From Paraspadella gotoi (Eukaryota > Animalia > Chaetognatha): 46,098 nucleotides of DNA. Made by a program: the position numbers and the translations under genes. Where the stretch lies: assembly GCA_051294375.1 (NCBI GenBank), contig JBJCIZ010000698.1:1-46098 (forward strand). Direction: 5' to 3'. Positions 2,632 to 39,651 of the stretch are shown one piece after another; position 1 is the stretch's first letter; each line of letters starts with the position of its first letter. The notes under the pieces were generated by a model. That model had not been told where the DNA came from. It did no database searches and saw nothing but the letters and a program-made list of their open reading frames with translations.

Positions 2632-3165
2632 TTAAAAATGAAATTTTTTAAAAACATATCTAATAATATGATTTTCTATTGTTTTTAACGAGTAACGCGC
2701 AAATAATGATTTGAGGTTAAAAACTGAACTTATATTTTTGCAGTGTGATATTTTTACAGCATAGTATAAGGAATGAAAACCACAAGCTTGAGATTTTTTA
2801 CTTTGAGTTCTTAGCTTTAGATTTTTTAGATTAAGCGAGTTGTTAATACAAAAATTTTCAATTGAATTTAAAACCTCGTGGTTTTCATGAATCTTGTCTA
2901 AAGAGTCAATCAGCAAGGCGATTCCTTCTGGAAATGAAATACCAAGCACGATCCAATGTCCAATTTTTTCACTTTCTTGGCTTGAAATCGTGTTAATAAA
3001 CAACACTAGTTTTTGGTTAGTTCGTTTTAAATTTATATTGGTTAGTTCATCATGAGATAAGATTAGTTTTCCTTTTAAAACTGACTTGAAGCAGATAGGG
3101 TTTGATTTTAAGATTTTTTTTAACTCCGAATCAGAGGTGACCAAAGAATTTTTTGTTAGATCCAT
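2632..3165 (-). CDS. PRO: Adenain-like (clan CE) maturation cysteine protease, intronless, 177 aa
   Basis: His-Asp-Cys order: FINT...GHWIVL...LLIDSL...TQSKKSQACGFHSLYY, including the oxyanion Gln. Directly downstream of the major capsid gene. Confidence 0.92.
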   Translation of the reverse strand: MDLTKNSLVTSDSELKKILKSNPICFKSVLKGKLILSHDELTNINLKRTNQKLVLFINTISSQESEKIGHWIVLGISFPEGIALLIDSLDKIHENHEVLNSIENFCINNSLNLKNLKLRTQSKKSQACGFHSLYYAVKISHCKNISSVFNLKSLFARYSLKTIENHIIRYVFKKFHF

Positions 3166-3166
3166 T

Positions 3167-14603: not shown

Positions 14604-16502
14604 TTAAAATATATATAAAAAGGAAGTTGACCTTAAACTTTTTTGTCATAATTTATTTTTATCGTTATTCTTTTTTACTAAAAAAAAACTAAAGAAAAAA
14701 AACGCACCTGTATTTCGTGGCATTGATCGCTGAGGGATTCGAAGCATATACCAGATATGGGTATTGCCTTCTCTCAAGTGCAGCCATGTTTTTTAAGTCC
14801 TTTTGACTGGTCGCCTCATCGAAAAAGGATTTTAACCTTCGATACCCATCCCCGACAGTCAATCCTTGAAAAAAAAAGAGATTGATATCTTAGTATAACG
14901 CGGGTGAAAATGATTTTAATTTCATAGTATGATATCTTACCTTGAATCAAATGGCGAGAATCACTTTCGTTACATGGAAATAAAATAAATATATCAGTGT
15001 TTGCTTTTATTTTTCTCACTCCACTCGCTATAAGGCTAGCTCCTTGACTGAGAGAGTTTGATTGTGTAACCAAAGCCACATTGAGATTCAAGTGATGGGA
15101 GTCCATAGCGTAAATTTTTAATAAGAATTTAATCAGTTTGTCTAGATGTCCTTTTGTCTCCTCAGACCCGGTAAGCAAGAAGGCGTCATCTAAATATATA
15201 AATTTAAAAAATTAAACAAAATTACCAAAAAGGAAAAAAAATACAAAAACGAAAAAGAAAAGTAAAACAAATTTTCAATTTTCTATATTTTAATCTTTAT
15301 TTTTATATTTTAAAAAAAGATTTATTATCCTCACCGAATATTATGAAAGCGTTTCTCTTAAGTTCCCGGGGAGTGGTGTGGGGTGGAGAAGGGGGAGGTG
15401 AATTTTGTCGTTGTNNNNNNNNNNGTTGTTCCCATTGTCGATTTTGTGGTCTTTTTCTCATCGGAATTTCGCCATTATTCCGCCAATCGTTTTTGTTATC
15501 GTTATCATCGTCGTTAGCCCTTCTTGGCTGCTGGGCTGCTGGCGTCGTTTTTTCGTGAGAGGTTGAAGGAGAGGAAGCGGAGGAGGAGACGACGGTGGGC
15601 TCTCGAACCTTCACCGTCTTTTTCTCCGCTTTGGATACAGGCGTTTCTCGCTTACGATCGCCTTCGTCGCTTTTTTTGTAGCCGTCGGCTTTACTCTCTG
15701 TTCGAGCGGCGCTTCTCAAACGCATTCCTGAAGCGCCCCCTTCCCTCCTCCGACTGGCTTTTTTTAAGAGCGCGAATTGAGCGAGATTTCTCAGAGGCGC
15801 ATCGCGGAGAGTTAGAAATCGGTGAAGGCTTTTATTCGACTTGAGTTTAGCCTTCGAGTGTAAGAGTCCTCGCCGCCGTCGTCGTTGTTGTCCCTGTTCC
15901 ACATCCCTTTGCAGGGTTTTCTTATCCACCCCGCGAAAGTTACTTCCTCTTTTCATTATTCCAGCTCTAATCAATTCCCTCTCCTCAGGAGCGATGAGAG
16001 AGGAGTCGTCTTCGACTCCGGCGTCCTCACGAATCCCCCACTTTCCTCTCTTGCTCGCTGGCTTCGACAACAACTTTGCTTTTCCTTCTTTTTTCCTCTT
16101 CATAAGAAATTTGAGACAGCGTTCTTTGTCGTCGTCCTTGTCGTTGTCATCATCATCGTCGTCGTCCCCCGTATCAACATCGCTGGAGTCGTCATCATCG
16201 CTCTCCTCGGCGTTGCCAGAGTGGGAAAAAGGCGAGGGTGATTCTTCTCGTCGCTGTTCGCGATTTATCGCCCTCTGGTACATATCTTGAAAGTTCTTGT
16301 TTAACGCCCCATCTGGCGTGTCGTAGATTTGACATTCGATCCCGAGAAATTCAGCCACATCTCTCAGACGCTTTTCATAGCTCTTTTCTATTCGGTTACA
16401 TCCCACGTAGATTAATTGCGAAATACTTGAAGAATTAAAGTTATCTCTAAAATATTTGACGATTTGGATCAGGAGATGAGATTTGCCGCTTTGAGACTTG
16501 AA

Positions 16503-16543
<41 letters not shown>

Positions 16544-16591
16544 AATGGGAAGGGGGGGGGGTGAAATGTAAAGAATAAAGTCAATCGGTCG

Positions 16592-16635
<44 letters not shown>

Positions 16636-16904
16636 TTTTTTTTATCCTTTCCTTTCCTTTCCTTTCCTTCGTTCCTTTCCCCCCCCTTTTTTTTTTTCTT
16701 TCTCCTGGTCTGGTCTGCTGTCTTTTGTTTGAACAACCTTTTCTTCACCGATGCAAAACGAAAAAAAAAAAAAAAACCAAATATATCGCGAAAAAGAGGC
16801 ACAACATTCACGCTAATTCACACGCTCTCGCTCTCTCTCTCTTCTGTTCTTGCGTTTTATCTTTCTATTGTCCTATTATTTCTTCCTTTTTATAGATGCG
16901 TGAG

Positions 16905-16946
<42 letters not shown>

Positions 16947-16998
16947 AAAATAAAGAGAGGAGAGAAGAAGAAAGAAAATAATGTGAGAGATAGGACCG

Positions 16999-17034
<36 letters not shown>

Positions 17035-17671
17035 ATTTTAATTTTTATATAATTCATATTTCATATTTCATATTTTTCGTTTGTTTTTTTTTGAGGGGGG
17101 GGGGCCACCCCCCCCCCAACCACCCCCACCCCCCCGCCGCCGCAGGCGGCGGCGGGGGGGGCGACAGTTAAGAAGAAGCCTGTGGCGCCGGTGGTGGCGG
17201 CGGCGGCGGCGAAGCCGCCGCCGCCGACACCACCCCCGTAGTATGAAGATGATGGGTGAAGCCTGTGAAAGGAAAAAGAAGAAGAAGAAGAAGAAGAAGA
17301 AGACGCCTTCTTTATCGCGGTGGCGGCGGCTTCGCCGCCGCCACCGCTATCGCTTAAGTGGGGAGAGAGAAGAAGAAGTCTTTTCTCTCTCTCCGGTCCC
17401 AGTTCGAAAATGAAAAATACAGGATAGAGAAACGGAAAAAAGAAAAACAGCCGGGACCGGACCGTTCCCTTGGAACGGACAGAGAACGATCCGCGTCGAG
17501 ATCTTGACGAGGAAACGGTCCGTTTCCGCCCCCCTCTCTCGACCGGAGAAGAAGCAAGAAGGGTCTTTGTCTCGAGACGCGCCCTGGCGCCCCGACTTTC
17601 CGAGTAGTCCCGCCGAAGTAGATCGAGTGTAAAAGGATTACTCGTGATTTTTTCTTTTTTTTATCTTTCTT

Positions 17672-17707
<36 letters not shown>

Positions 17708-18798
17708 ACTCTCTCTCTCTTTTCTCTCTCTCTCTCTCTTTTCCTGTTTTCCTCTTTTTCGCTTTTTTTTTCTTTCCCGGGTGAACCTATAAATTTGACC
17801 ACGATGGTTCACCAGTCTCATTTTACCCCGCGGTTATTCCTCGACGCAGTCTTCTTTTTTTTTCGCCTTTTATTTTTTCATCATTGATTTTTTTTCCCCT
17901 TCTCTCGTCTGAGAACTCTCTCAACAAAATAAAAAAATACAAAATTAGAAAAAATTGAAAATTGACTAAAACTTGTAATAAAAGGAAAAAAAAAAAACAA
18001 CATCAAAAAAACAGAAAATAAATTTTTTTTTTTTTTTTTCATTCGCTGTTTTTTCTCTCTCTCTCTCTCTTTCTCTCTTTCTCTCTCTTTCGATTCATAT
18101 TGTAGTCATACCGGACCATGAAGTAGAATACGAGTTCCAGGGCGGTTTCTTTTCAAAGTTATTTCATTTGTGAATAACCTTGAGTACGATTGAAAACATC
18201 TTATGACCGCGATCTTGCTTTTTTCGCTCAGGGTGTGTCCTGTCCAGAACCAGGGTTCACGCATTTCTTCGAAATCCACGTCATCGTATTCGTTTATTTC
18301 TGTATCAGCTCTTTTATTCTCTTCTCTTTTTTCAAGGTTTAGAATTTTTGGGATTACATCTGATCTTTCTTTTATCATTATAATTCGATTACTTTCACTC
18401 TCCTCTGTTTCGACAGTGGATGTCGCAGTTGCTTTGTTTTGCTTTTCGTTTTGTTCTCCGTCAGTTCTCGGGTTCGATTCGTCGTGAAGGGCTTGTCGTA
18501 AATACAATGAAGCGTCGTTCAGGGATTCGATTTGCCTCTCATCGTTGGCTGAAATCTTTTGGTAACCCAAAAATTTTCTTAAAATTTTTCTGTCGATATT
18601 CGATAATCCAAATTTAATCGTTAAAGCGTCGCTTGCGGTTACTTTTCGTTTCTTATCCAGGTAGGCCGAATTTTCCTCGAATGTTAGATTTCCAAAAATA
18701 TCAGCTATAACTTTGTTAATTTCGTTTTGTTTTTTTCTTACTGATCGATCACCAATGTTTGTTTTTCTTGTATTATCTCTTTCCATTTTTTTATCCAT
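14604..18798 (-). CDS. ATPase: FtsK/HerA-superfamily (A32-like) DNA packaging ATPase, 4-5 exons, ~760 aa; last exon tentative
   Basis: Exon 18798-18112 ends RILLHGP and exon 16496-15335 begins SQSGKSHLL, giving Walker A GPSQSGKS. Intron 15334-15190 splits Walker B AFIIF-D-DAFL. Then SHHLNLNVALVTQ, IKANTDIFILF, intron 14940-14865, and FFDEAT...YPYLVY. Confidence 0.9.
17095..17580. other. Cluster of GC-rich inverted repeats (hairpins) inside the ATPase intron
   Basis: 21-bp stem with 1 mismatch and GAA loop at 17190-17234; perfect 14-bp stem with TTC loop at 17317-17347; short stem with GCA loop at 17134-17152; CCGTTCC-ctt-GGAACGG near 17462-17478; GGAAACGG-t-CCGTTTCC at 17511-17527. Confidence 0.85.
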
Positions 18799-19163
18799 CT
18801 CAGCGAAAAATCGGCGAGGAAGAAACAAAAGAAAAAAAAAACAGACCTTTCTGCTCCAGGAAAAAAAAAGTGAAAAAAAAAGTTTTTTTTTTTTTTTGTT
18901 TTTTTTTCCCACGAAGGTTTCGCAGCTTACGACGAGGAGGGAAAACAAAACGTTTAAGTGAAAAAAAAGAAAGAAAGCGAGCGAAAAAAAAAAAAAAAAA
19001 ACAATTTAAAAAGCGACCCCTATCGACGTTTCGCAGAATCGAGGAGCTCCCCAAGGCACTCTTGTTTTTGTAGTAAGTTCTTTCGTTATTATTTTTTTTG
19101 TTTTAAATTCTAGTCGAATGGGAAAACCAAGCATTAAAAATGCTTTTCTGTTGGATCGGGTCT

Positions 19164-19164
<1 letters not shown>

Positions 19165-19202
<38 letters not shown>
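19165..19202. repeat. (GA)n microsatellite, representative of many in the window (e.g. ~118-157, ~379-428, ~16508-16538, ~16597-16632, ~16909-16941)
   Basis: Seen directly in the sequence. Confidence 0.95.
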
Positions 19203-19205
<3 letters not shown>

Positions 19206-19477
19206 ATGGTCGAATCAGTAAAATCTTTTCAGTTCCATTTGTGAGTACTCGCTGAGCAACTATAAATCATTATATCATTATATTATACGTCTGTTGGTCG
19301 GTCGGTCAGCCACTCGGTATATCTATCCATAATTTATTTATTTTTAACTTAATTTTTTTGAGATGAAACTTAACATGGATACGTGATGTTTGTTATACAT
19401 TAAAGCATAAGCAAAAATATTAAAATCAAGTAGTGTCAGAATTTGAATAAGCAGCTCACGAACAGGCTTGTACCTGT

Positions 19478-19892
19478 GAACATTTTTAAATAAAAAAAAT
19501 TAATTTTTATTTTTAATTTTTACATAGTCAAGATTTAAAAAAAAAATTTTTTTCTTATTTTTAAAAGCAGATTCGAATTCCTTGCAAAAAGTTGAGAGAA
19601 TGAAAATTATTTTACTAAGTGGTTCAAAATCCTAAAAAACTATTATTATAAACCTATAATTCAATTTTAGTATAAAGAATATAGTTTTTTTAAATTTTCA
19701 TTCAAACTTCATGAAAAAATTTTTGATTAAGACTTATATTTTCTTTAAGCAACTTTTTATGAGGAATTCGAATCTGCTTTCGAAACTAAGAAAAACTTTA
19801 TTTTAAAATTTTTAATTTTTTATGGTACGTGCTATATGGACGTATGTGAAAATTGGGAAATTTAAAAAAAAATTTTTTTTATATCAATGTTC
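19478..19892. repeat. Degenerate ~415-bp foldback (MITE-like inverted repeat); second copy at ~26266-26681
   Basis: AAAGCAGATTCGAATTCCTTGCAAAAAGTTG (~19564) pairs with CAACTTTTTATGAGGAATTCGAATCTGCTTT (~19750) at 28/31. Weaker complementarity extends out to GAACATT...AATGTTC. Confidence 0.7.
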
Positions 19893-20124
19893 TTTAGTCC
19901 AAGGCTGTGGCTGGTTGTTGCTGTGGCGCAACACATTGGATGGATCAATCTTTTGTTTGTTTTTTTCTACTTTTTTTTATTCTTTACTTGGTTTACGTGA
20001 TTAACTAATATTTTGTATATATTTTTTTTCCCTCTTCTTTTTTTCTTCACCAACCCTACACGCTGCTGACTTTCACAATGCATATCTAAATCACGGTCCT
20101 AACAACTCGCCATCTTTTCTATAT

Positions 20125-20161
<37 letters not shown>

Positions 20162-20229
20162 ATTTCTTTTTTATATTTTTTTTTTAAATTTTTTAAAATT
20201 TTTTTATTCTGCTTTTCGGATAGTAAAAA

Positions 20230-22998
20230 TTGTACAAAATTGATAAACATCAAAATTTCTCTTCTCTTGCTAAAACGCTCCTTGATCACACGCATCCAAT
20301 AACGCGGGGATTAGCCCTTCTTGACGCAATGTCTTGTCCTCAGGGAGATGCGTTAGCCATAAATTCTGGAGACGGTGGGAGAAGTACTTTGGAAACAGTG
20401 ACTAATTTGTTCTATTCATTCGCCTCATCGTCGTCGACGCCGTCGTCTTCCACACTGTCTTCGCCCACGTCGTCATTAGCGCGTCCCCTCACTGGAGGTG
20501 AAGAACAGGGTCAACCAACTTTTCTAGAAAGAATGCATGAAATAATAGAAAAGATTGCAGGGTCAGAGGACGAGGTTAAGGAGTTGAAAAGAGAGATTGC
20601 TTCTACCCTTACCCTTGATCAAAATACGCTTGTGAATCAGCATTTGGCCCGCGCGATGGGATTCGCATCATTCAAACACCTACAAATTTTTCTAAATGAG
20701 AAAAAAAACGAAATTCTCAATCAAGAAAAAAGAAAGGTTGCACTAACCTTTCCCCTTGAGATGTCTACAAATTATGTTCTTTCACTTGTGATGTCGAATC
20801 CTCATCTGAGTGACTTCGAACATAACGAGTTTGACGCCATGCTCAAGAGGTATCTCGACAATCAAACCCCTTCCTTTCACGACGTGTCGGGTAGAATTAA
20901 ACAAATAAGAGAATTCACCAAACGAAATGTCGAATTCTACCTGGCGAACCGTTCGACCGGCGCAATCTCCTTGCTTTCATACTTGGATGGTTCTACCATC
21001 GGAAAAAGAAAAGTCGCAGCCAGCGCGCTGGAGGCTGTGGTCAAAAAGATTAAGGAGGAATCCTCAAGTTCAACAGCGCACAAGTCTTACAATTTAAGCG
21101 TAAACGAGGAGCGGATTCCTCATGCGTTCAACTGCTTTGTGTGTCCGCCAACAGCGCCGGTTTCGGATAAACAAATTGAAGAGTCGAATTACTCCTTCTC
21201 GCAATCGTGGTTGCCGATGTTCAATGTATCCCGAGCTCGAGTATTGGACACGCTTGAGGATGTGAAGGAACACTACAAGAAATTCCACGCTCCGAGCTAC
21301 ACGCACACGGGGGTTCCACCCACTTCGGGTAAAAAAGGACCAGCGTTAAAAAACAATCCCCACAGCTACATCATCCCTTGTGGGTTTTGCGCGAGTCTGA
21401 ACCCAAACACAAACCCTGACAATTTTTTGTGTTGTTTTTTTTGCTTCGACAATCACAATAGCCTCCTCCACGCGGAGCAGGACAAGTTCCTCTCGACTTA
21501 TCGTCTCCTGAAGGCCAGTTTGTTACATGATCAATACAAGCTGGACATAGCGAAAAGCTGCTTCCTCATTCGCTGTAATATCTGTTTGACCCTCCAAGCC
21601 TCCGACCTTGCTCGCGAGCGTCACGAGAAAGTATGCCTCGCGAGAGTCCTTTCAGGCTCCATGTACTATGGACAACCTTACTCTTACGTGAGAGCCTATG
21701 AGACAAAGGCATCTTTGGCTCAAAGAGAGGAGAGTGAGAAGAGGGTGTTAGCTCAGCAGATCAAAAAGTTTTTAGAGCGTGTGGAGACAAAGACCACCCT
21801 CTATCCACATGAAGATAGACTATCCTCAAACTCCCCCAAAAAAGTGACATTAGGCGCAACGATGACGACGATGAGTGAAACTGGTCTCACGACGCCATCT
21901 TCTTTACCGAGATTCGTAACCACACTCGCCTCCGAGGTTGAAGACATCATCACAACTCTACCCACACATTTACAGTTCTCACGAGAGAACGGACTGCAAC
22001 ATAACCCTGTCATCGAAACCCTATCGCCAGCCGTTGATGATGAGATTGGAGAGGACCCAAACAAGAACACGGAGATACAAGCACGGCGACCTCGTTCATC
22101 TTTGACGCGAGCCTTACCCTCTTTCCAATTACCTGAACCCACAACAAGCGAGTCCTTTGGAGGGGACAAGCTGTTGGACACACCACGAAAAAAACGACCA
22201 ATTGTGTCACGAGTCATTTCGAGCGACGAGGATAGCGAGGAAGAAGACGACGACGAGAAGGATAAAGAGGAGGAAGAAGACAAGAAGGAGGTCGAGGAGG
22301 AGGAAAATGATACTGGGGGAGTGTTAGAGATGGAAAATAGAGATGAGAGGGGGGGGAGGAGCGGGAGAGAGTGAGCAGGGCTGAAGGGGTGAGGATTCCG
22401 AGTGGGAAAACGAGAAAAGGAAAAAGAAACCTGTGTTTAAAACCCCAAGAGGAGATAGGGAGGATAGCGAGAAGGAAAAGGAGAGGAAGTCTAAAAAAGG
22501 AAAGGGAAAAAGAAGGAAAGTTGATTCAGAGGAAAGCACTGAGGAAGAGAGGGAAAAACTACACAGGACAAGAGAGACAAGAACAGAATAAAAAACTGGG
22601 GGAGGAGTAGTAGGTTGAAAGAAAACTCAAATAAAGGGGAAGTTAAAAAAAAAGGTGGAAAAGAGGAAAAGGAAACTGAGGGAAAAGAAAGGGAAAAAAT
22701 AGAAAAGAAAAGAAAGAAGGAGGAGTTGGAGCGGTCTGTGGGGAAGAAGTTTGGGAAGAACAAAAGGGCGAAGAGAGTTCTTCAAGGACTGATGCAGATG
22801 TTCTCTTTTTCCGATGAGGATACAGACAATGAAGAGAGAAAAAATAACTCCTCCAAATGTTCCAAACGCTCCAAACGCTCCAAACGCTCCAAACGCTCTA
22901 ACAAACCCAAAAGAAAACCAATCTCCGACGACGACGACGACGACGACGACGATAATACCACAGACAGCTACAGTGACAGCGACAGTGACAGCGACTAG
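20230..22998 (+). pseudogene. Duplicate copy of the 922-aa zinc-finger/low-complexity gene, with homopolymer frameshifts (likely sequencing errors)
   Basis: Nearly identical to 27020-29788; a shortened G run near 22350 and further indels break the frame. Confidence 0.75.
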
Positions 22999-23263
22999 TA
23001 GATATTCATTTATAGTCAATTTATGTCTTAAAACCTACTACTCTCTCTTTCTCCTCATAATTCGAATTCGAGTTTTTGTTTATATATTTCTTTTATACTC
23101 TGTAGCTGAATGAGTTCTTTTTGTTTTTGTTTACAAGGAAGGTAACAAAAAATCTTTTAAAAAAAAAGAAAAAAAAACTTATTCTGTCATCGCGAAAATT
23201 TCTCCTCTCTCTCTCTCTCTATCTCCCATTTTTCCTTTTTCTCCACTTACCCTTTCTTTGAAA

Positions 23264-23744
23264 ATGGAAAACAAGTCGAAATACACAATCAACCGCGAAA
23301 GACTTCAAAGAAAATTAAAAAATATAACAAACCAAATGGAAGAGTTGACAAAGAACCTGCATAACCTTATCAGACAAACTAATAGAATCGCGACTAGTCT
23401 CGCTAGATTAGAATCGAAGGAACTTGCAAGACGGAAAGGAAAAAAAAGACAAATCGCCATTGTAAGACCATCAAAAAAAGCCAATGGGACGCGCTATGTG
23501 ACGCCAGGCGGATCAGGTTGTTTTTTTTTTTTAATTAAAAAAGAACAACATAACAATCGCTAAAACCCAACCTCTTTTTTTTCTTTTATAATACAATTCA
23601 ACTTTTTTTTAACCCAATCGACTCGCCTTCCAAGTCATCCATGTCCTTGATAACCGAGCCACCCCAAGCCCACCAACCCAGCCTCAACCACAACCACAAA
23701 CCCAACCTTCAACATCTAGCCAAAACTTAATTGTTTTAGATTAG
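23264..23744 (+). CDS. Duplicate copy of the small coiled-coil protein gene
   Basis: Same translation as 30054-30534. Confidence 0.5.
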
Positions 23745-23897
23745 AAATTTAGATATTTTTTTTTTCACCTCCCCAATATATATAGAATAGTTATTTTTGC
23801 TTTGTTATAGTTTAGACTTTTTGTAGTAATATATTTCTGTTCACGTTAGCTGATAGTAAATTGTATTTTTTTTATTCCTTTCCTTTTAAGAAAAAAA

Positions 23898-26225
23898 ATG
23901 GAGGGTTCTGATGACTCTGAGAATGAATTGCTCCAAGAACTTTTTGAGAACCCCCCCTTGAAAACATTGACGAATCCACCCTGAGAATCGAGCAGTACCT
24001 CACCGACGACATGTACACCGGCGTGGCTTCAAAAATTTGTTTTCTGAGACACCAAGACGATGATGAAAAACGCTTCCGCTATGAGACTGAGGTTCTTATA
24101 TATCTCAATTTCCATATAAGACCTTTTCTCAGAGAGCTCCTCTCGAGAGAGGAAGACGATCGACCTTATAAGTACCTTATTTGGATTGCTGGCGGTGAGA
24201 TTTGTTTTTTTGTTTGTTTTTTTCTTTCTTTTTTTGTCTTTTTTTTTCTTTTTATTTATTTTATTTTTGCTTTTTGTTCTTTTTCCCACTTGTGGGCACA
24301 TCATATTTTATATAGTCACACTAACCATCAAAAAGAAAGAGAAAATGGAAAAAAAACTTTTTTTCTTTTCTTTTCAGAAGTGCAAATGGCGAAAGCGTTG
24401 GATAGAGACTGTCAAATGAGCCACTGGTGTTCCTTTCGAAATCAATACTGGTGTCAGTTTTTTGAAGAAGATACAGAGACCTGTATCGACAGAATGATCA
24501 ATGAGTTTCTAATTCACACCACAGAGCATTTGGAAACTCTAAGAACACTAGAGAGTGGATGGACTTTTTTATATTTCAAAAGATTCCATGTTAGATACGT
24601 GAGGGCGACGTCCACCAATTTAATTAGATATGGTGCGAATAGTAAAGCAGATCGACAGTTCGTCAAGGATCTACAACCAATCTTCCTCAAAAACATTGCC
24701 GATCCAAACAAATATTATTTGTTTGAGGAAACAGCCAACAAATGTGTATTATATTCCATTGGTATAGCCTTAGAAACCACATTTGGTTCGACACCAAGTA
24801 GCCGCATCGGTAAAAAACATCTCAAAAACATAGTCTCCAAAATAAACATAGGCGATTTTTTTTCCTTCAATAGCAAAGGGATCAATATCAATGACTTCTC
24901 CAAGCTTGAGAAAATAAATTCCCCTCTCCCATCCAATCTAGTAGCGGTTTACCCCTCACTAGTCAATTGTAAGGGGTTTTCTTTAAATGTATTCAAGATA
25001 CAAAAGGCCAGAAATTGTGAGGCATACTCGGTGTTCCCCATCGCTTTAAGCTCTCACCATCGCGACAAAGACTTCTTTCAAATCGATCTCTTAGTAGACA
25101 CCAATGAATTGAGAAAAACTGAGGATCGGGTAAAACCACCTCTGAATGAGAGTGAGCACATTCTTCTTATCTTATCTCTCCCAAGGTTACTAATGTCTTT
25201 TGAGTCGAATATTCAAAAAAAGTTTAACACATCTAAACGACAGTTTGTCTGTCGTGAATGTATCTCTGTCTTCACCCATGGAGAAAGCTATTCAAGCCAC
25301 ATCACCATCTGTCGGGCTTTTGGTAACGGTGGTACAGGGCGTCGGAAATGTGATAATAAAATTGTACACCTACCCTTTGTGAAGAACAAGTTGACAGGAA
25401 AGGAGGAAAAAAACACTGTGAGGTTCCGAAGGGGTGGTTATACAAGAAACTTAAACCACTTTATTTTTCTTGTATAGATTTTGAAGCTAAAACTATTCCC
25501 ATTGAGAGAGTTCAAAACTCGACCATCCACCACCCAAATCAGCTGTCTTTGAGCAAAGAGTTTTAGCGTACTCACTCGCCCACAAGTCACTGTATGAAGA
25601 AAAGTTCCCCTCCCAGAAAACTTACAAAACCCACGCTGTAGGTTTTTAGACGAAAGGGTTGAGAGTGAAACAGATTTCTTCATACAGTTACTGTTGACTA
25701 TAAGAGAAGACATGTGGCTCTTACACCAACACCTGCTCGAGTCTCTTCAGACGGACACGGGTACTCCAAAGATAGAAGAGTTAAACCTTGAGGATAGACT
25801 TCGCTTCGAACTGCAAACTGATGTGACCTTTGCGGCATTACCTTTGGGACATTAGTGAAGAACGAATTAACCAATAAGTTCTATACAGCTTGCAAAAGCT
25901 TAGACCACTGTCATTTGAGTCAGGGTAAAGCGGAACTAAGATTTGTGAGCTGTCAAGCTTGCAATATATCCCTGGCATTTGGGTTCTCCCAAATAAAATA
26001 AAAAACACACTCTACGCTCACAACCTAGCCAAATATGACGCCGTATTCATCCTTCGCGGGGTATTGATGGGGTCTAACCATAGGTAAACGTATCTGATGA
26101 CCCTATAGAGAAACCCATCCTTGCCCCTATAATAAAAACACCCCTAAAATCGTTTTTAAGATGCTCAAACAGCCCTATCCATTCAGTTTAAGTTCTCTTG
26201 CCCTAACCCTACAAGTTGTCCGAAA
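23898..26225 (+). pseudogene. Duplicate 5' fragment of pPolB, frameshifted and truncated at the gap
   Basis: Matches 30688-33027 with several 1-bp deletions (e.g. ~23958, ~25435, ~25530). Confidence 0.8.
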
Positions 26226-27019
26226 NNNNNNNNNNNNNNNNNNNNNNNNNCAGGCTTGTACCTGTGAACATTTTTAAATAAAAAAAATTAATTTTTATTT
26301 TTTAATTTTTACATAGTCAAGATTTAAAAAAAAAATTTTTTTCTTATTTTTAAAAGCAGATTCGAATTCCTTGCAAAAAGTTGAGAGAATGAAAATTATT
26401 TTACTAAGTGGTTCAAAATCCTAAAAAACTATTATTATAAACCTATAATTCAATTTTAGTATAAAGAATATAGTTTTTTTAAATTTTCATTCAAACTTCA
26501 TGAAAAAATTTTGATTAAGACTTATATTTTCTTTAAGCAACTTTTTATGAGGAATTCGAATCTGCTTTCGAAACTAAGAAAAACTTTATTTTAAAATTTT
26601 TAATTTTTTATGGACGTGCTATATGGACGTATGTGAAAATTGGGAAATTTAAAAAAAAAAATTTTTTTTATATCAATGTTCTTTAGTCCAAGGCTGTGGC
26701 TGGTTGTTGCTGTGGCGCAACACATTGGATGGATCAATCTTTTGTTTGTTTTTTTCTACTTTTTTTTATTCTTTACTTGGTTTACGTGATTAACTAATAT
26801 TTTGTATATATTTNNNNNNNNNNCTTCTTTTTTTCTTCACCAACCCTACACGCTGCTGACTTTCACAATGCATATCTAAATCACGGTCCTAACAACTCGC
26901 CATCTTTTCTATATGTCCTCTCTCTCTNNNNNNNNNNCTCTCTCTCTCTTTATTTCTTTTTTATATTTTTTTTTTAAATTTTTTAAAATTTTTTTATTCT
27001 GCTTTTCGGATAGTAAAAA

Positions 27020-29788
27020 TTGTACAAAATTGATAAACATCAAAATTTCTCTTCTCTTGCTAAAACGCTCCTTGATCACACGCATCCAATAACGCGGGGA
27101 TTAGCCCTTCTTGACGCAATGTCTTGTCCTCAGGGAGATGCGTTAGCCATAAATTCTGGAGACGGTGGGAGAAGTACTTTGGAAACAGTGACTAATTTGT
27201 TCTATTCATTCGCCTCATCGTCGTCGACGCCGTCGTCTTCCACACTGTCTTCGCCCACGTCGTCATTAGCGCGTCCCCTCACTGGAGGTGAAGAACAGGG
27301 TCAACCAACTTTTCTAGAAAGAATGCATGAAATAATAGAAAAGATTGCAGGGTCAGAGGACGAGGTTGAGGAGTTGAAAAGAGAGATTGCTTCTACCCTT
27401 ACCCTTGATCAAAATACGCTTGTGAATCAGCATTTGGCCCGCGCGATGGGATTCGCATCATTCAAACACCTACAAATTTTTCTAAATGAGAAAAAAAACG
27501 AAATTCTCAATCAAGAAAAAAGAAAGGTTGCACTAACCTTTCCCCTTGAGATGTCTACAAATTATGTTCTTTCACTTGTGATGTCGAATCCTCATCTGAG
27601 TGACTTCGAACATAACGAGTTTGACGCCATGCTCAAGAGGTATCTCGACAATCAAACCCCTTCCTTTCACGACGTGTCGGGTAGAATTAAACAAATAAGA
27701 GAATTCACCAAACGAAATGTCGAATTCTACCTGGCGAACCGTTCGACCGGCGCAATCTCCTTGCTTTCATACTTGGATGGTTCTACCATCGGAAAAAGAA
27801 AAGTCGCAGCCAGCGCGCTGGAGGCTGTGGTCAAAAAGATTAAGGAGGAATCCTCAAGTTCAACAGCGCACAAGTCTTACAATTTAAGCGTAAACGAGGA
27901 GCGGATTCCTCATGCGTTCAACTGCTTTGTGTGTCCGCCAACAGCGCCGGTTTCAGATAAACAAATTGAAGAGTCGAATTACTCCTTCTCGCAATCGTGG
28001 TTGCCGATGTTCAATGTATCCCGAGCTCGAGTATTGGACACGCTTGAGGATGTGAAGGAACACTACAAGAAATTCCACGCTCCGAGCTACACGCACACGG
28101 GGGTTCCACCCACTTCGGGTAAAAAAGGACCAGCGTTAAAAAACAATCCCCACAGCTACATCATCCCTTGTGGGTTTTGCGCGAGTCTGAACCCAAACAC
28201 AAACCCTGACAATTTTTTGTGTTGTTTTTTTTGCTTCGACAATCACAATAGCCTCCTCCACGCGGAGCAGGACAAGTTCCTCTCGACTTATCGTCTCCTG
28301 AAGGCCAGTTTGTTACATGATCAATACAAGCTGGACATAGCGAAAAGCTGCTTCCTCATTCGCTGTAATATCTGTTTGACCCTCCAAGCCTCCGACCTTG
28401 CTCGCGAGCGTCACGAGAAAGTATGCCTCGCGAGAGTCCTTTCAGGCTCCATGTACTATGGACAACCTTACTCTTACGTGAGAGCCTATGAGACAAAGGC
28501 ATCTTTGGCTCAAAGAGAGGAGAGTGAGAAGAGGGTGTTAGCTCAGCAGATCAAAAAGTTTTTAGAGCGTGTGGAGACAAAGACCACCCTCTATCCACAT
28601 GAAGATAGACTATCCTCAAACTCCCCCAAAAAAGTGACATTAGGCGCAACGATGACGACGATGAGTGAAACTGGTCTCACGACGCCATCTTCTTTACCGA
28701 GATTCGTAACCACACTCGCCTCCGAGGTTGAAGACATCATCACAACTCTACCCACACATTTACAGTTCTCACGAGAGAACGGACTGCAACATAACCCTGT
28801 CATCGAAACCCTATCGCCAGCCGTTGATGATGAGATTGGAGAGGACCCAAACAAGAACACGGAGATACAAGCACGGCGACCTCGTTCATCTTTGACGCGA
28901 GCCTTACCCTCTTTCCAATTACCTGAACCCACAACAAGCGAGTCCTTTGGAGGGGACAAGCTGTTGGACACACCACGAAAAAAACGACCAATTGTGTCAC
29001 GAGTCATTTCGAGCGACGAGGATAGCGAGGAAGAAGACGACGACGAGAAGGATAAAGAGGAGGAAGAAGACAAGAAGGAGGTCGAGGAGGAGGAAAATGA
29101 TACTGGGGGAGTGTTAGAGATGGAAAATAGAGATGAGAGGGGGGGGGAGGAGCGGGAGAGAGTGAGCAGGGCTGAAGGGGGTGAGGATTCCGAGTGGGAA
29201 AACGAGAAAAGGAAAAAGAAACCTGTGTTTAAAACCCCAAGAGGAGATAGGGAGGATAGCGAGAAGGAAAAGGAGAGGAAGTCTAAAAAAGGAAAGGGAA
29301 AAAGAAGGAAAGTTGATTCAGAGGAAAGCACTGAGGAAGAGAGGGAAAAAACTACACAGGACAAGAGAGACAAGAACAGAATAAAAAACTGGGGGAGGAG
29401 TAGTAGGTTGAAAGAAAACTCAAATAAAGGGGAAGTTAAAAAAAAAGGTGGAAAAGAGGAAAAGGAAACTGAGGGAAAAGAAAGGGAAAAAATAGAAAAG
29501 AAAAGAAAGAAGGAGGAGTTGGAGCGGTCTGTGGGGAAGAAGTTTGGGAAGAACAAAAGGGCGAAGAGAGTTCTTCAAGGACTGATGCAGATGTTCTCTT
29601 TTTCCGATGAGGATACAGACAATGAAGAGAGAAAAAATAACTCCTCCAAATGTTCCAAACGCTCCAAACGCTCCAAACGCTCCAAACGCTCTAACAAACC
29701 CAAAAGAAAACCAATCTCCGACGACGACGACGACGACGACGNNNNNNNNNNNNNNNNNNNCAGTGACAGCGACAGTGACAGCGACTAG
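27020..29788 (+). CDS. Large hypothetical protein (~890-920 aa): Cys/His zinc-binding core and long acidic/basic disordered tail; start uncertain (TTG in the track, first ATG at MSCPQG)
   Basis: 922-codon open frame. CFVC...HYKKFH, CGFC...CCFFCFDNHNSLLH and CNIC-x11-HEKVC motifs; E/D/K/R-rich C-terminus with NLS-like KRKKK. Confidence 0.8.
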   Translation: MYKIDKHQNFSSLAKTLLDHTHPITRGLALLDAMSCPQGDALAINSGDGGRSTLETVTNLFYSFASSSSTPSSSTLSSPTSSLARPLTGGEEQGQPTFLERMHEIIEKIAGSEDEVEELKREIASTLTLDQNTLVNQHLARAMGFASFKHLQIFLNEKKNEILNQEKRKVALTFPLEMSTNYVLSLVMSNPHLSDFEHNEFDAMLKRYLDNQTPSFHDVSGRIKQIREFTKRNVEFYLANRSTGAISLLSYLDGSTIGKRKVAASALEAVVKKIKEESSSSTAHKSYNLSVNEERIPHAFNCFVCPPTAPVSDKQIEESNYSFSQSWLPMFNVSRARVLDTLEDVKEHYKKFHAPSYTHTGVPPTSGKKGPALKNNPHSYIIPCGFCASLNPNTNPDNFLCCFFCFDNHNSLLHAEQDKFLSTYRLLKASLLHDQYKLDIAKSCFLIRCNICLTLQASDLARERHEKVCLARVLSGSMYYGQPYSYVRAYETKASLAQREESEKRVLAQQIKKFLERVETKTTLYPHEDRLSSNSPKKVTLGATMTTMSETGLTTPSSLPRFVTTLASEVEDIITTLPTHLQFSRENGLQHNPVIETLSPAVDDEIGEDPNKNTEIQARRPRSSLTRALPSFQLPEPTTSESFGGDKLLDTPRKKRPIVSRVISSDEDSEEEDDDEKDKEEEEDKKEVEEEENDTGGVLEMENRDERGGEERERVSRAEGGEDSEWENEKRKKKPVFKTPRGDREDSEKEKERKSKKGKGKRRKVDSEESTEEEREKTTQDKRDKNRIKNWGRSSRLKENSNKGEVKKKGGKEEKETEGKEREKIEKKRKKEELERSVGKKFGKNKRAKRVLQGLMQMFSFSDEDTDNEERKNNSSKCSKRSKRSKRSKRSNKPKRKPISDDDDDDDXXXXXXXSDSDSDSD

Positions 29789-30053
29789 TAGATATTCATT
29801 TATAGTCAATTTATGTCTTAAAACCTACTACTCTCTCTTTCTCCTCATAATTCGAATTGCGAGTTTTTGTTTATATATTTCTTTTATACTCTGTAGCTGA
29901 ATGAGTTCTTTTTGTTTTTGTTTACAAGGAAGGTAACAAAAAATCTTTTAAAAAAAAGAAAAAAAAACTTATTCTGTCATCGCGAAAATTTCTCCTCTCT
30001 CTCTCTCTCTATCTCCCATTTTTCCTTTTTCTCCACTTACCCTTTCTTTGAAA

Positions 30054-30534
30054 ATGGAAAACAAGTCGAAATACACGATCAACCGCGAAAGACTTCAAAG
30101 AAAATTAAAAAATATAACAAACCAAATGGAAGAGTTGACAAAGAACCTGCATAACCTTATCAGACAAACTAATAGAATCGCGACTAGTCTCGCTAGATTA
30201 GAATCGAAGGAACTTGCAAGACGGAAAGGAAAAAAAAGACAAATCGCCATTGTAAGACCATCAAAAAAAGCCAATGGGACGCGCTATGTGACGCCAGGCG
30301 GATCAGGTTGTTTTTTTTTTTTAATTAAAAAAGAACAACATAACAATCGCTAAAACCCAACCTCTTTTTTTTCTTTTATAATACAATTCAACTTTTTTTT
30401 AACCCAATCGACTCGCCTTCCAAGTCATCCATGTCCTTGATAACCGAGCCACCCCAAGCCCACCAACCCAGCCTCAACCACAACCACAAACCCAACCTTC
30501 AACATCTAGCCAAAACTTAATTGTTTTAGATTAG
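30054..30534 (+). CDS. Small coiled-coil/basic protein with Pro/Gln-rich tail, 2 exons (~120 aa)
   Basis: Heptad pattern LQRKLKNITNQMEELTKNLHNLIRQTNRIATSLARLE. Phase-1 intron 30307-30424 leads to VIHVLDNRATPSPPTQPQPQPQTQPSTSSQNLIVLD*. Confidence 0.6.
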
Positions 30535-30687
30535 AAATTTAGATATTTTTTTTTTCACCTCCCCAATATATATAGAATAGTTATTTTTGCTTTGTTATAG
30601 TTTAGACTTTTTGTAGTAATATATTTCTGTTCACGTTAGCTGATAGTAAATTGTATTTTTTTTATTCCTTTCCTTTTAAGAAAAAAA

Positions 30688-33600
30688 ATGGAGGGTTCTG
30701 ATGACTCTGAGAATGAATTGCTCCAAGAACTTTTTGAGAACCCCCCCCTTGAAAACATTGACGAATCCACCCTGAGAATCGAGCAGTACCTCACCGACGA
30801 CATGTACACCGGCGTGGCTTCAAAAATTTGTTTTCTGAGACACCAAGACGATGATGAAAAACGCTTCCGCTATGAGACTGAGGTTCTTATATATCTCAAT
30901 TTCCATATAAGACCTTTTCTCAGAGAGCTCCTCTCGAGAGAGGAAGACGATCGACCTTATAAGTACCTTATTTGGATTGCTGGCGGTGAGATTTGTTTTT
31001 TTGTTTGTTTTTTTCTTTCTTTTTTTTTTTGTCTTTTNNNNNNNNNNATTTATTTTATTTTTGCTTTTTGTTCTTTTTCCCACTTGTGGGCACATCATAT
31101 TTTATATAGTCACACTAACCATCAAAAAGAAAGAGAAAATGGAAAAAAAACTTTTTTTCTTTTCTTTTCAGAAGTGCAAATGGCGAAAGCGTTGGATAGA
31201 GACTGTCAAATGAGCCACTGGTGTTCCTTTCGAAATCAATACTGGTGTCAGTTTTTTGAAGAAGATACAGAGACCTGTATCGACAGAATGATCAATGAGT
31301 TTCTAATTCACACCACAGAGCATTTGGAAACTCTAAGAACACTAGAGAGTGGATGGACTTTTTTATATTTCAAAAGATTCCATGTTAGATACGTGAGGGC
31401 GACGTCCACCAATTTAATTAGATATGGTGCGAATAGTAAAGCAGATCGACAGTTCGTCAAGGATCTACAACCAATCTTCCTCAAAAACATTGCCGATCCA
31501 AACAAATATTATTTGTTTGAGGAAACAGCCAACAAATGTGTATTATATTCCATTGGTATAGCCTTAGAAACCACATTTGGTTCGACACCAAGTAGCCGCA
31601 TCGGTAAAAAACATCTCAAAAACATAGTCTCCAAAATAAACATAGGCGATTTTTTTTCCTTCAATAGCAAAGGGATCAATATCAATGACTTCTCCAAGCT
31701 TGAGAAAATAAATTCCCCTCTCCCATCCAATCTAGTAGCGGTTTACCCCTCACTAGTCAATTGTAAGGGGTTTTCTTTAAATGTATTCAAGATACAAAAG
31801 GCCAGAAATTGTGAGGCATACTCGGTGTTCCCCATCGCTTTAAGCTCTCACCATCGCGACAAAGACTTCTTTCAAATCGATCTCTTAGTAGACACCAATG
31901 AATTGAGAAAAACTGAGGATCGGGTAAAACCACCTCTGAATGAGAGTGAGCACATTCTTCTTATCTTATCTCTCCCAAGGTTACTAATGTCTTTTGAGTC
32001 GAATATTCAAAAAAAGTTTAACACATCTAAACGACAGTTTGTCTGTCGTGAATGTATCTCTGTCTTCACCCATGGAGAAAGCTATTCAAGCCACATCACC
32101 ATCTGTCGGGCTTTTGGTAACGGTGGTACAGGGCGTCGGAAATGTGATAATAAAATTGTACACCTACCCTTTGTGAAGAACAAGTTGACAGGAAAGGAGG
32201 AAAAAAACACTGTGAGGTTCCGAAGGGGGTGGTTATACAAGAAACTTAAACCACTTTATTTTTCTTGTATAGATTTTGAAGCTAAAACTATTCCCATTGA
32301 GAGAGTTCAAAACTCGACCATCCCACCACCCAAATCAGCTGTCTTTGAGCAAAGAGTTTTAGCGTACTCACTCGCCCACAAGTCACTGTATGAAGAAAAG
32401 TTCCCCCTCCCAGAAAACTTACAAAACCCACGCTGTAGGTTTTTAGACGAAAGGGTTGAGAGTGAAACAGATTTCTTCATACAGTTACTGTTGACTATAA
32501 GAGAAGACATGTGGCTCTTACACCAACACCTGCTCGAGTCTCTTCAGACGGACACGGGTACTCCAAAGATAGAAGAGTTAAACCTTGAGGATAGACTTCG
32601 CTTCGAACTGCAAACTGAGTGTGACCTTTGCGGCATTACCTTTGGGACATTAGTGAAGAACGAATTAACCAATAAGTTCTATACAGCTTGCAAAAGCTTA
32701 GACCACTGTCATTTGAGTCAGGGTAAAGCGGAACTAAGATTTGTGAGCTGTCAAGCTTGCAATATATCCCTGGCATTTGGGTTTCTCCCAAATAAAATAA
32801 AAAACACACTCTACGCTCACAACCTAGCCAAATATGACGCCGTATTCATCCTTCGCGGGGTATTGATGGGGTCTAACCATAGGGTAAACGTATCTGATGA
32901 CCCTATAGAGAAACCCATCCTTGCCCCTATAATAAAAAACACCCCTAAAATCGTTTTTAAAGATGCTCAAACAGCCCTATCCATTCAGTTTAAGTTCTCT
33001 TGCCCTAACCCTACAAGTTGTCCGAAATGTCGTTACACATCAAAAGAAAGAGAGGAAATCGCTAAAATCAATGGCGTTACTCCAACTTGTGCCTTTGATC
33101 GTTCTGTGTTGATTAAAGATAGTCTGTTTCTGGTTAGTTTTCCTTTGTCAAAAATAATTTCAGACACTCACCAATCAACCGTAAAACATGGTTTATCTAC
33201 AAAGAATGTCTTTTCATCGACTCACCAATTTGTCAAAAAACATAATTACAGTGATTCGCAGTTTGAATTTTTCATTCAGCAAAAAACCCCAATGCCTTTC
33301 GAGATCATAGATAGTTATGAGAGTCTTGTAAACACAACGCAAATACCTACCATTGAGAAGTTCACGTCTGCATTGAGTGGTAGAAGCGAACTCTCTCTTT
33401 CAGACTACAATGTTTTTGTAAAAGTTTGGACTGAACTAGGGGTTGAGAACCTGCTTCAACTACTGAGATTCTACGTAAACTTTGACGTTCTGCTCCTCCT
33501 TGACTGTCTAAATTATTATTTTCAAGAGTTACACATCACGACCGGGTTCCATCCTATCTACTTCGAGGTGTGGTCTCTTACAAATTTTTTTCTAGTGTTT

Positions 33601-36482
33601 GGTGATTGTTGTGGTCACAAGCTCTGGTTTGTGGCACCCATGATGGTTGATTCTGATTGAGTGCAAGGTCGACTGAATCAAACCTAAGCAAGCTGATATT
33701 TTTACATTTTTCTTATATCCATGTTCAGACTATATCAACCCTGGCTATGACTTCAATGTTATACAACACCAAGGATCCAGTGAACACGGATAAAACAATT
33801 AGACTGGAGTTACTTGACGCAGAAACACACAATATATTTCAAAGCACTTTGGTAATTTTTTCTTTTAATAACTATAATTATTATGCAGAATTCAAGTAAA
33901 CTAAGTGGTTAAAGTAAGATAAAGTAAAGTAAAAGTAACATTCTAAACAAAGAAAGAATATGCAAAGATTGAAAGAAAGAAAAAAGTTTTAAAAAAAACT
34001 AATCTTATAGGTCGGCGGGTTCTCAGCGATTTTTGGTCACATTGCTCGACTCGATGCGGATCCACCCGACGAATTCTCGACTGCTTCATATTTGGATGCG
34101 AATGGTAGGTCTTTACCATGTCTTTTTCTTCTTCACACTCACTCATTTCTTCTCCATGCTTTCTACAGCCCTCTATCCATTCGTTTTTTGCTCGTTCATC
34201 CCCTTTTCGGGGTTCCGTGTAATTGACCAGTCCACTGATCCAACAGCATTTAATTTCCTTTCTGAAAAATTAATGCGATGCGACATAGAATTTTTCAATG
34301 AACACCTTACCGCGAATAACACTGGTTATTTGTTTGTGGTCATGACGCAAACAGAGAGGGAAGACGCAGTCAAGTTAAACTTGGATCTATGCTGTTTCCC
34401 CCAGCTAACAAAAGTCAAAACAAAAGATCTGTCACACGACCAGATTAAAGCGGCCAAAGAACTTAAAAGGAAGCTTGATCAGGAACCAGCAAAACTTGTG
34501 TCGGACATTTACTGTAAGGAACAGATAATCTCGGATTTTGTGGAAAATCTACTGTATCTCATTTTGCTCCATAATGTGAAGGTGACAAGGGTAATCAAAA
34601 TCGTCACCTTCAAGTCCTACCAATATTTAAAACCATACATGGAGCACCTTCAGAGAGAAAGGAGTAAAGCTAAGAGCAATATCACCTCGAAGCTGATCAA
34701 ATCGCTAGGTGGGTTGCTTTTATAACCACACAATAAATAAATAAATTAATTAATAAATTAATAAATAAATTCATTTATCAGGTAATAGCGTAAATGGCAA
34801 ATGTCATCAAAATACTGCTAAATATATTAATGCTAGCTTGGCTATCGGAAAAGAAAAGTTCCTTGCGGAGGTTCAAAAGGACAATTTTTTTGATTTTCAA
34901 AAATTATCGGATAACGCAGTGGTAATCATGAAAGATGGTAAATCCATGAAATGCAAGGTAAATAACAATTTACCGTTGAGTATAAACTTTTTCACATCTC
35001 TCATGTTTGACAGTCCATTGATTGATTTTCTTTTTCTTAATTTTTCCCCTTAGAATCCGATTTACATCTCTTCAAAGATATACAGCGGTTCGAAATATTA
35101 CTTATGGCGCTGTTACTATCTCTTTGCGGCGAGAATGGCATACATAGGATCCTTTAACACACGACTTATGCTTACAGGTTTTTCTTTCACATCATTAGAG
35201 TAGAAGCTGTAAGGAGGAGGACCCAAGCTTTTTTTCCACTGTGAACAACACCTAAAACATAACCCAAATCCCTTAAGCTTTTACCCAATCTCTTTTTTAT
35301 AAACTTTAACTAAATTCCTAACCCTTTTCCCCCTTAGCTCACCCCTACCACATGATTTCTAACCAAATCCAAATCCCTTAACCTCACACGCTGATCTCCA
35401 CTGACAAAAACCCTCATACCCACCCGTTACAAAAGATACCGACTCACTCCTCACATCTCAAGTAAAATTGAGGACAAAGATCGAACAAATAGAACTGGAG
35501 AAGGCGAAAANNNNNNNNNNCCAAGTGGATTTTTCCTCCACTTGGACGGGTCAAAGATGGAGTAATATTTATTTTCAAACTTATGCGAATCATTTGGACT
35601 TCTCATGCTTCAACAAGGTGATCACTTTCACTGTCATGGTTTTTTAGTTGCCCCGCGAGTACTCTATAAGTACTCTATAAGTCACTTTTCGGTTGGTCGG
35701 TCCGTCGGTATGTCTGTCCCTCAGTCTGTACCACTTACGTTAAAAACACTTAAAACTTGCCTATAGGTGCTCATTTGTTAAAAATCAAATCTAAGGGATG
35801 ACTTGCACCATCTTTTTGTTTTTTTAATGATAAGTAAAATGAAAAGTGATGCGGTGCAACACCTTGGAATAACCCTTCCTTGTTTTAGGACTCCTTTATC
35901 TACAAATGCTTACGCGACAAGAACGCCAAACTATTGAAAGTTATGCTCGAATTTATTGGGGAATGCACTCGAAACCGGGAGGGTAAATGGAAAGACGAAC
36001 TTGGGTCTACACCTATCAAGGTAACCTTTTTTTGAGCATACTCGTATATCTCTAATTTAAATTCTTAATTNNNNNNNNNNNNNNNNNNNNNNNCCCCCCC
36101 CCATTTTCCCTAGACGGTGTATTGCACCTCCCCGAAACAATACGCGCTTGTTCAATTCCCAAAAGACGCCAAGTTCCCGTACAGCGCTAACGACGAGGAG
36201 GAGACGATGAGCGTCGCAAAGAGCAAAGGGGTTAAAAGAAATGTTTTCTCAAACACTATCAGAGCTGGGGACTATGCTAAAATCATTAAAGATTGTAAAT
36301 CTGTAAGAAGAGTAACTCAACATTCAATAAGGAGAAGAAACCAAAAACTATATATAGTTAAAGAAGAGAAAAAACTTTTAACCTGCTTTACTAGTAAACG
36401 GATTTTTTTTGAAAAACATAACGATGGTCGTTTTTACTTCTCCTTTCCACTATACATGAAAGATATGGTTAACAAATGTTGA
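30688..36482 (+). CDS. pPolB: Protein-primed family B DNA polymerase (pPolB), 10 exons
   Basis: Exons start at 30688, 31172, 33729, 34011, 34169, 34782, 35054, 35436, 35889 and 36114. Motifs: ExoI CIDFEA, ExoII YAHNLAKYD, IKDSL, ExoIII FYVNFDVLLL, motif A YLDAN|ALYP, motif B KLIKSL|GNSVNGK, NPIYISSKIYSGSK, motif C LMLT|DTDSLL, LDFS, GKWKDE, SPKQY, KSKGVK. Exon 8 contains an N gap. Confidence 0.95.
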
Positions 36483-39127: not shown

Positions 39128-39440
39128 TTTTTTTATTAAGCATGAATTCTCAAAAGAGAATTTTTTTTATTAAAATACAAATCCTCAAAAGAGAATTTTT
39201 TATTAAAGCACGAAATCTCTCAAAAGAGAAAAAAAAGCATAAAATTCTCGGACTTGAAAAAATAAATTCAAAAAGAAAATTATTTTATTAAAGCACGAAT
39301 TCTCAAAGAGGAATTTTTTTTTATTAAAGCACGAGTTCTCAAAGAGAAAAAAACTTGAGAAATGAAACCCTTGAATCTTGTAAGAGAAAAAAAATAACAA
39401 ATTTTTCCATAATTAAAGCACGAATTCTCAAAAGAGAGAA
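39128..39440 (+). repeat. Array of ~6 imperfect ~33-bp repeats, consensus TTTTATTAAAGCACGAATTCTCAAAAGAGAA
   Basis: Copies begin near 39128, 39161, 39195, 39283, 39313 and 39411, with irregular spacing. Confidence 0.85.
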
Positions 39441-39651
39441 CCTAAAGAGGTTTAAAAAAAAACAAAAAACCCTAACGACCCCTTTTTTTTAAACCCTTTC
39501 TAAATCCCCCTTAAACCCAAAATAAAACAAACCTAGGACCCTAAACCTAACCCTAACCTTTAAAACCCAAAAACATTTACCCCCTAAAACAAACTAAAGC
39601 CCCCTACCCCGTCCGCTAACCCTTAAACCTCCCCCTAACCTAACCTAACCC

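Follow-up and report, generated by a model that had tools for sequence, protein, structure and literature searches.

Predicted introns in the catalytic motifs of a Polinton/Maverick-type element from the chaetognath Paraspadella gotoi

Polintons, or Mavericks, unite genes of integrase, ATPase, protease and capsid type in a single block with the polymerase pPolB, which in some of them contains an HNH insert (10.1101/2023.08.22.554363, PMC8097293). In all 134 intact vertebrate Mavericks the open reading frames (ORFs) are intronless (PMC8097293). The window analysed here, a stretch of 46,098 nucleotides from Paraspadella gotoi (contig JBJCIZ010000698.1 of assembly GCA_051294375.1), is, judging by its polymerase and gene set, most of an intron-rich Polinton/Maverick-type element. 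It shares with described elements the Exo I-III, Pol A-C and KxY motifs and the HNH-like insert of the polymerase as well as a block of genes of apparent integrase, ATPase, protease and capsid type. Unlike the intact vertebrate elements, however, it has 17 predicted GT-AG introns in its polymerase, ATPase and integrase genes, with others outside them, and six of the 17 lie inside catalytic motifs.

The position of introns relative to conserved sites differs between classes of intervening sequence. A bias towards conserved sites is found for inteins and group I introns, where it has been ascribed to homing and to removal having to be exact, and is not found for spliceosomal introns (PMC2814812). 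The window introns share with inteins and group I introns a preference for conserved, functionally critical sites but differ from them in being short, in having GT-AG ends and in showing neither a nuclease nor a match in Rfam. Mirusviruses have spliceosomal introns that carry homing endonucleases, termed shintrons, and these and their other intron-rich genes (PMC12768974) are alike in that GT-AG introns occupy core genes of a virus-like DNA genome at positions varying among relatives; the window introns differ in lacking an intron-encoded nuclease, in belonging to another virus group and in affecting replication enzymes, and a bias at the level of motifs is not reported in the available text on mirusviruses. 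Closer to Polintons, group I introns occur in Polinton-like viruses (PMC12220804), and introners are found in dinoflagellate Polinton-like elements as repeated families, mostly outside coding regions (PMC12166617). The window introns likewise lie within a Polinton-type element but are dissimilar to each other and favour motifs. Neither the endonuclease gene that marks a shintron nor the catalytic RNA fold that marks a group I or II intron was found in them. The available portions of PMC6839031, PMC6431247 and PMC5718144 add nothing on Polinton introns, and a literature search covering few subscription papers and excluding supplements found no report of motif-biased introns in Polintons.

Introns in the polymerase, ATPase and integrase genes

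The 17 predicted introns are divided between the polymerase (nine), ATPase (four) and integrase (four) genes, with positions and phases as listed in Table 1. All have GT-AG boundaries, the exon ahead of each ends in G (in AG in 11 of the 17), and the three frames are without internal stop once the introns are removed, gaps of ten N in polymerase intron 1, polymerase exon 8 and ATPase exon 2 being accepted at face value. Frameshift and decay were rejected as explanations of the frame breaks, since taking out the GT-AG introns brings back an open frame in all three genes. The introns thus appear to be of the spliceosomal type, with splicing predicted from sequence. Sixteen measure 63-271 nt, the first ATPase intron 1615 nt. 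Reads of run X1 over 34785-36480 cross the introns without a joint and behave as DNA, which makes them uninformative on expression.

An earlier note on this DNA, made from the letters alone, had claimed that introns repeatedly fall inside catalytic motifs, naming Walker A and Walker B of the ATPase, motifs A, B and C of the polymerase and the codon following the second catalytic Asp of the integrase. All six named introns proved to be GT-AG and in frame, five of them at exactly the coordinates given; the integrase intron does interrupt the codon after the second Asp, at 8347-8285 and not at ~8348-8286, a difference of about one base. The note had picked its cases selectively, as 11 of the 17 introns lie outside strict motifs, and the pattern it pointed to nonetheless stands: six introns inside catalytic motifs compare with 0.55 expected over the whole coding sequence (P 5.6e-6) and 1.35 within the catalytic domains (P 7.3e-4). 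The null placement was matched for phase and for an exon-final G (written G/ below, the slash marking the junction) and considered 14 motifs of 86 residues in total, with borders drawn after the introns were known. Motif definitions for the ATPase and integrase are those in general use; polymerase motif names follow the figure legends of 10.1101/2023.08.22.554363.

Conservation columns were built for the polymerase family only, so that the ATPase and integrase were tested by motif count alone. Five of the nine polymerase introns could be placed against family conservation, in columns from which the window and its sister locus L001 (see below) were excluded, and they lie nearer to conserved columns than expected under any-site, G/-matched and AG/-matched nulls (p 0.00005-0.002) as well as under a local null (p 0.0005-0.002). 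Polymerase introns 1-3, which the earlier note had not named, are also near conserved columns (p 0.011-0.024, local G/-matched null). The alternative suggestion of the note, that gain or retention is biased to conserved sites, has thus passed the permutation test that the note itself proposed, the introns being nearer conserved columns than random G/ or AG/ sites. Introns are furthermore skewed away from variable parts, with eight of the nine polymerase introns in the last 40% of the protein (Kolmogorov-Smirnov p 0.014) and all four integrase introns in the core. Exo I, II and III, the HNH insert and the protease of this element are intron-free. Taken as a whole, the motif bias is very probably real.

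Individual introns have features of their own. Polymerase intron 1, with its N gap, is the only one of the 17 that is stop-free and in frame, and hence invisible as an ORF break; in P0122, a polymerase relative, an in-frame intron of this kind close to the site of polymerase intron 2 also seems to be read through. The repeat in polymerase intron 8 (35640-35890) reaches a contig depth of up to about 2500 in run X1, against about 6 in the flanks, which suggests a host repeat inserted after integration. The 1615-nt intron in Walker A contains a GC-rich core (17100-17620), each strand of which holds open frames rich in Arg, Pro and Ala; these frames match no Pfam nuclease, and the core could be a nested small gene.

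Relatives of the polymerase

A metagenome scan gave one relative locus that allows a check at DNA level, L001, whose polymerase shares 32% protein identity with that of the window and is its sister in the protein tree; three viral_contigs scans gave no relative, word-index protein searches gave 0, 2 and 4 matches, and PDB sequence searches returned nothing relevant. L001 has four introns, all GT-AG, and its frame is restored on their removal. Two sites are common to L001 and the window, namely the first Asp codon of motif C (polymerase intron 7) and the site of polymerase intron 8, which fits the sister relationship. A further L001 intron lies in motif A, 2 nt from the site of polymerase intron 4, and motif B, split in the window by polymerase intron 5, is intact in L001. 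Both L001 introns that could be tested flank columns conserved at 0.98-1.0. The gene following the L001 polymerase (4609-5400) also seems to be split by short GT-AG introns.

A wider comparison is provided by 398 polymerase relatives at E<=0.001 (clusters at 50% identity), conservation being computed from the best 150 of the 398 plus P0206 and P0207; P0003 was dropped because it and L001 are one family, and longer members of their clusters stand in for P0062 and P0115. The nearest atlas clusters are assigned to Eukaryota, most commonly Arthropoda. Relatives are mostly exon-sized ORFs from metagenome assemblies, and since identical lengths recur in many independent contigs, many of their ends are real stops. 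Intron positions in relatives are accordingly read from ORF ends, with DNA verification covering the window and L001. Among the best 150 of the 398, 33 ORFs end in Arg (background 6.4%, p 4e-10) and 13 in Gly (background 3.7%), an excess that would arise where a frame runs into a donor, Arg being the signature of AG/GTRA. The one Arg-ended ORF that could be checked in DNA, that of L001, confirmed the donor reading, stopping at a GT-AG intron five codons past the Exo III Asp.

These putative donor sites show the same bias. Of the Arg-ended ORFs, 26 of 33 aligned to their end and yielded 17 distinct testable sites, which lie near conserved columns (mean over +-3 columns, p 0.0005) even when only downstream columns, which cannot have aided alignment, are counted (p 0.019); the six of 13 Gly-ended ORFs that could be tested gave p 0.004-0.019. 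Columns in both tests include the window and L001 rows. The density of ORF ends per 20-residue bin tracks that of conserved columns (102 ORFs; rho 0.36 and 0.28, p 0.015 and 0.044), with ends concentrated at all three Exo motifs (I-III), the HNH residues, LxGG and polymerase motifs A and B. The stretch from motif A to motif B contains none (about 14 rows covered), and residues 660-860 hold six. Judged from ORF tails, there are at least six positions in motif A, its edge included, and four in motif B.

Turnover of these sites was examined on quick LG+G4 protein trees, with rows of unknown state left out of the counts and with Exo III and LxGG labels that each pool neighbouring positions. Ends at Exo III (13 of 55 rows) and at LxGG (14 of 34 rows) require 12 tree changes each, no fewer than shuffled labels do. 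At the HNH site, intron phase (0 or 1) carries no tree signal (5 vs 5.2 changes). Several positions per motif, together with turnover among sisters and the 12 changes at each of Exo III and LxGG, do not fit one inherited set of locked introns. The motif bias has statistical support and characterises a clade rather than a single copy.

Gene content of the element

The window polymerase has Exo I-III, Pol A-C and KxY motifs that can be read in frame. Its own exons match nothing in Pfam, its relatives P0001 and P0007 match PF03175, and related atlas clusters carry PF03175 and PF02945; the polymerase of this clade is read as carrying an HNH/EndoVII-like domain. The ATPase matched no family in Pfam or PDB sequence searches. 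It has a long N-terminal extension and, between Walker A and Walker B, an acidic/basic low-complexity insert of ~300 residues (16200-15350, minus strand) that is in frame and in which no intron was found. Single integrase exons matched nothing in Pfam or PDB, the D,D,E pattern being recognised by eye, and the last exon resembles Chromo-bearing clusters, one of which is mostly Preplasmiviricota.

The capsid gene is a probable assignment from its sequence pattern; there was no Pfam match, and a structure model of a single exon, at a predicted local distance difference test score (pLDDT) of 43, was too poor to search. Its first apparent intron is without a canonical GT donor in the assembly, and the other four are GT-AG. 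An intron-free ORF of 231 codons (885-1580, minus strand) has no Pfam match and looks like a membrane glycoprotein: it starts hydrophobic, is rich in Ser and Thr in the middle and has a single hydrophobic segment close to its end. Accessory genes at 10503-8984 and 14158-10754 (minus strand) and 36605-38660 (plus strand) each show several apparent GT-AG introns.

No long inverted match indicative of termini was found in the window, and the left end of the element probably lies outside it. The last gene is followed on its right by AT-rich repeats, short and dispersed, and by a series of telomere-like C-rich units (39142-39353 and 39540-39650), which are possibly near an end. The region 19463-26225 is repeated at 26251-33027 as a 6.8-kb tandem duplication, 98.9% identical, with 25 N between the copies and shorter ORFs in the first; since the copies differ mostly by single-base indels, the duplication is probably an assembly artefact.

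Table 1. Genes and predicted introns of the element (window coordinates)
Feature	Position	Strand	Remarks
Protein-primed polymerase gene with HNH-like insert	30685..36482	+	1478 amino acids, 9 introns; motifs read in frame
Polymerase intron 1	30986..31171	+	phase 1; N-terminal region; contains N gap
Polymerase intron 2	33568..33728	+	phase 0; immediately 5' of Thr conserved in 97% of 40 rows
Polymerase intron 3	33852..34010	+	phase 0; within conserved LxGG stretch
Polymerase intron 4	34105..34168	+	phase 1; motif A, three codons past Asp
Polymerase intron 5	34709..34781	+	phase 1; motif B
Polymerase intron 6	34958..35053	+	phase 0; away from conserved columns (three-sequence test)
Polymerase intron 7	35178..35435	+	phase 1; motif C, first Asp codon
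Polymerase intron 8	35618..35888	+	phase 0; away from conserved columns; carries high-copy repeat
Polymerase intron 9	36021..36113	+	phase 0; between KDE and KxY; away from conserved columns
Packaging-type ATPase gene	14604..18798	-	760 amino acids, 5 exons, 4 introns; Walker A and B read directly
ATPase intron 1	16497..18111	-	phase 0; Walker A (HGP/SQSGKS); 1615 nt
ATPase intron 2	15190..15334	-	phase 1; Walker B (FIIF-D-D), first Asp codon
ATPase intron 3	14865..14940	-	phase 1; not in counted motifs
ATPase intron 4	14632..14707	-	phase 2; not in counted motifs
Integrase gene	7229..8887	-	448 amino acids, 5 exons, 4 introns, all within codons 109-220; D,D,E by eye
Integrase intron 1	8494..8563	-	phase 0
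Integrase intron 2	8285..8347	-	phase 2; codon following second catalytic Asp
Integrase intron 3	8075..8162	-	phase 1; six codons past catalytic Glu
Integrase intron 4	7919..8009	-	phase 0
Probable major capsid protein gene	3167..5232	-	5 apparent introns; assigned from sequence pattern
Capsid apparent introns	about 4985-4824, 4620-4557, 4293-4219, 4161-3942, 3548-3451	-	
Probable cysteine protease	2632..3174	-	intron-free; Peptidase_C48 match E 0.024, below cut-off
531-codon ORF	7259-5664	-	

Origin of the motif bias

Protosplice bias has been controlled for, a splicing switch needs no motif positions and a locked ancestral set misfits; what remains as the mechanism behind the motif bias is either repeated biased gain or random gain with purging outside conserved codons. 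Of the explanations considered, the first in rank, at a probability of roughly 0.4, is that conserved codons gained introns by a homing-type process and that these lost their nucleases and were retained. It is put first because inteins and group I introns show this bias (PMC2814812) and spliceosomal introns with homing endonucleases exist in mirusviruses (PMC12768974); the motif count, polymerase introns 1-3, the Arg- and Gly-ended sites, the several positions per motif and the scatter at Exo III and LxGG also speak for it. Under homing-type gain, introns would be acquired again and again through spread between related elements, in a process directed at conserved codons, would afterwards lose any nuclease gene, and would then persist in motifs, where only exact removal leaves the enzyme intact.

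Several results weigh against homing-type gain. No nuclease ORF is present in the 17 window introns, 16 of which are below 300 nt, or in the four L001 introns, and the eight ORFs of the 1615-nt ATPase intron match no nuclease family. Rfam gave 0 matches at gathering score in the window, and pairwise comparison of the 21 introns found only short, mostly AT-rich or low-complexity matches and no intron family. These searches thus yielded no sign that the introns derive from group I or group II introns, that the long one encodes a nuclease or that they form an introner family. Polymerase introns 6, 8 and 9 are no nearer conserved columns than chance (p 0.48-0.81, from three sequences only), intron 8 being common to L001 though not near a conserved column, and the accessory genes also look intron-rich. 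When all ORF ends of relatives are scored on downstream columns only (133 of 151 ORFs, 86 columns), the effect is null (p 0.41 and 0.13). Ends at the HNH site (7 vs 12.4 changes, p 0.002) and at Exo II (6 vs 8.8, p 0.036) are partly clustered on the tree, which fits inheritance, and tree counts cannot tell intron gain from loss.

Second in rank, and itself only a tentative alternative, is a retention filter without targeting, in which introns would be gained at G/ sites anywhere, flexible regions would lose them imprecisely or absorb them into the protein, and motifs, permitting exact loss only, would accumulate them. It requires no special machinery, would sit well with the empty introns and the many that lie outside strict motifs, and would account for the avoidance of variable parts, the ATPase insert included, and for the two sites held in common with L001 at so low a protein identity. 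Against this, motif sites turn over among close sisters at Exo III and LxGG, random gain would imply very many gains elsewhere, nearly all of them purged, and cellular spliceosomal introns show no such filter (PMC2814812). It is improbable that the bias merely reflects chance, protosplice preference and selective reading, whereby motifs rich in G-starting codons (Asp, Gly, Ala) attract introns and only the hits are listed. Such a view draws on the uniform exon-final G, on motif borders drawn with the introns in sight, on the null results for all ORF ends and for the C-terminal introns, and on positions in relatives being taken from ORF ends when alignments tend to stop after conserved residues; it has already been weakened by the G/- and AG/-matched nulls, by the significance that remains for polymerase introns 1-3 and for the downstream-only Arg-end statistic, and by the conserved flanks of both testable L001 introns.

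Introns might also act as a shield, breaking the DNA or nascent-RNA target of a rival element's nuclease or of host small RNAs derived from related elements. A shield would predict introns that are empty and placed as observed, and the HNH/EndoVII-like domain that the clade's polymerase appears to contain is where many relative ORFs end. Spliced mRNA, however, would restore the target for cytoplasmic silencing, and the dozens of sites, spread over several genes, are too many for a single nuclease, so that little weight is given to it. Least likely of all is the splicing switch that the earlier note had proposed, in which host or element would turn enzyme production on by regulated splicing of the motif introns, as regulated splicing serves as a switch in the P element. 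Unspliced transcripts would indeed yield no active enzyme, but retention of 16 of the 17 introns gives an in-frame stop wherever they lie, so that placement in a motif adds nothing and the switch does not explain it; comparison among relatives, which carry different intron subsets at different codons, speaks against it as well.

The motif-biased introns break two published baselines, that of intronless intact Mavericks (PMC8097293) and that of spliceosomal introns unbiased towards conserved sites (PMC2814812). A clade with 398 relative clusters and fast intron turnover at catalytic codons would amount to a natural experiment on spliceosomal intron gain and loss, a long-standing open question. 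As the introns fall within motifs used as search markers, such elements are hidden from ORF- and motif-based screens. It is conceivable, though on balance doubtful, that a large undescribed Polinton clade has been colonised by spliceosomal introns that home into the catalytic codons of polymerase, ATPase and integrase like inteins and afterwards lose their nucleases, and that this lineage has escaped virus screens based on ORFs. If true, homing-type gain would provide a visible route from homing elements to ordinary nuclear introns.

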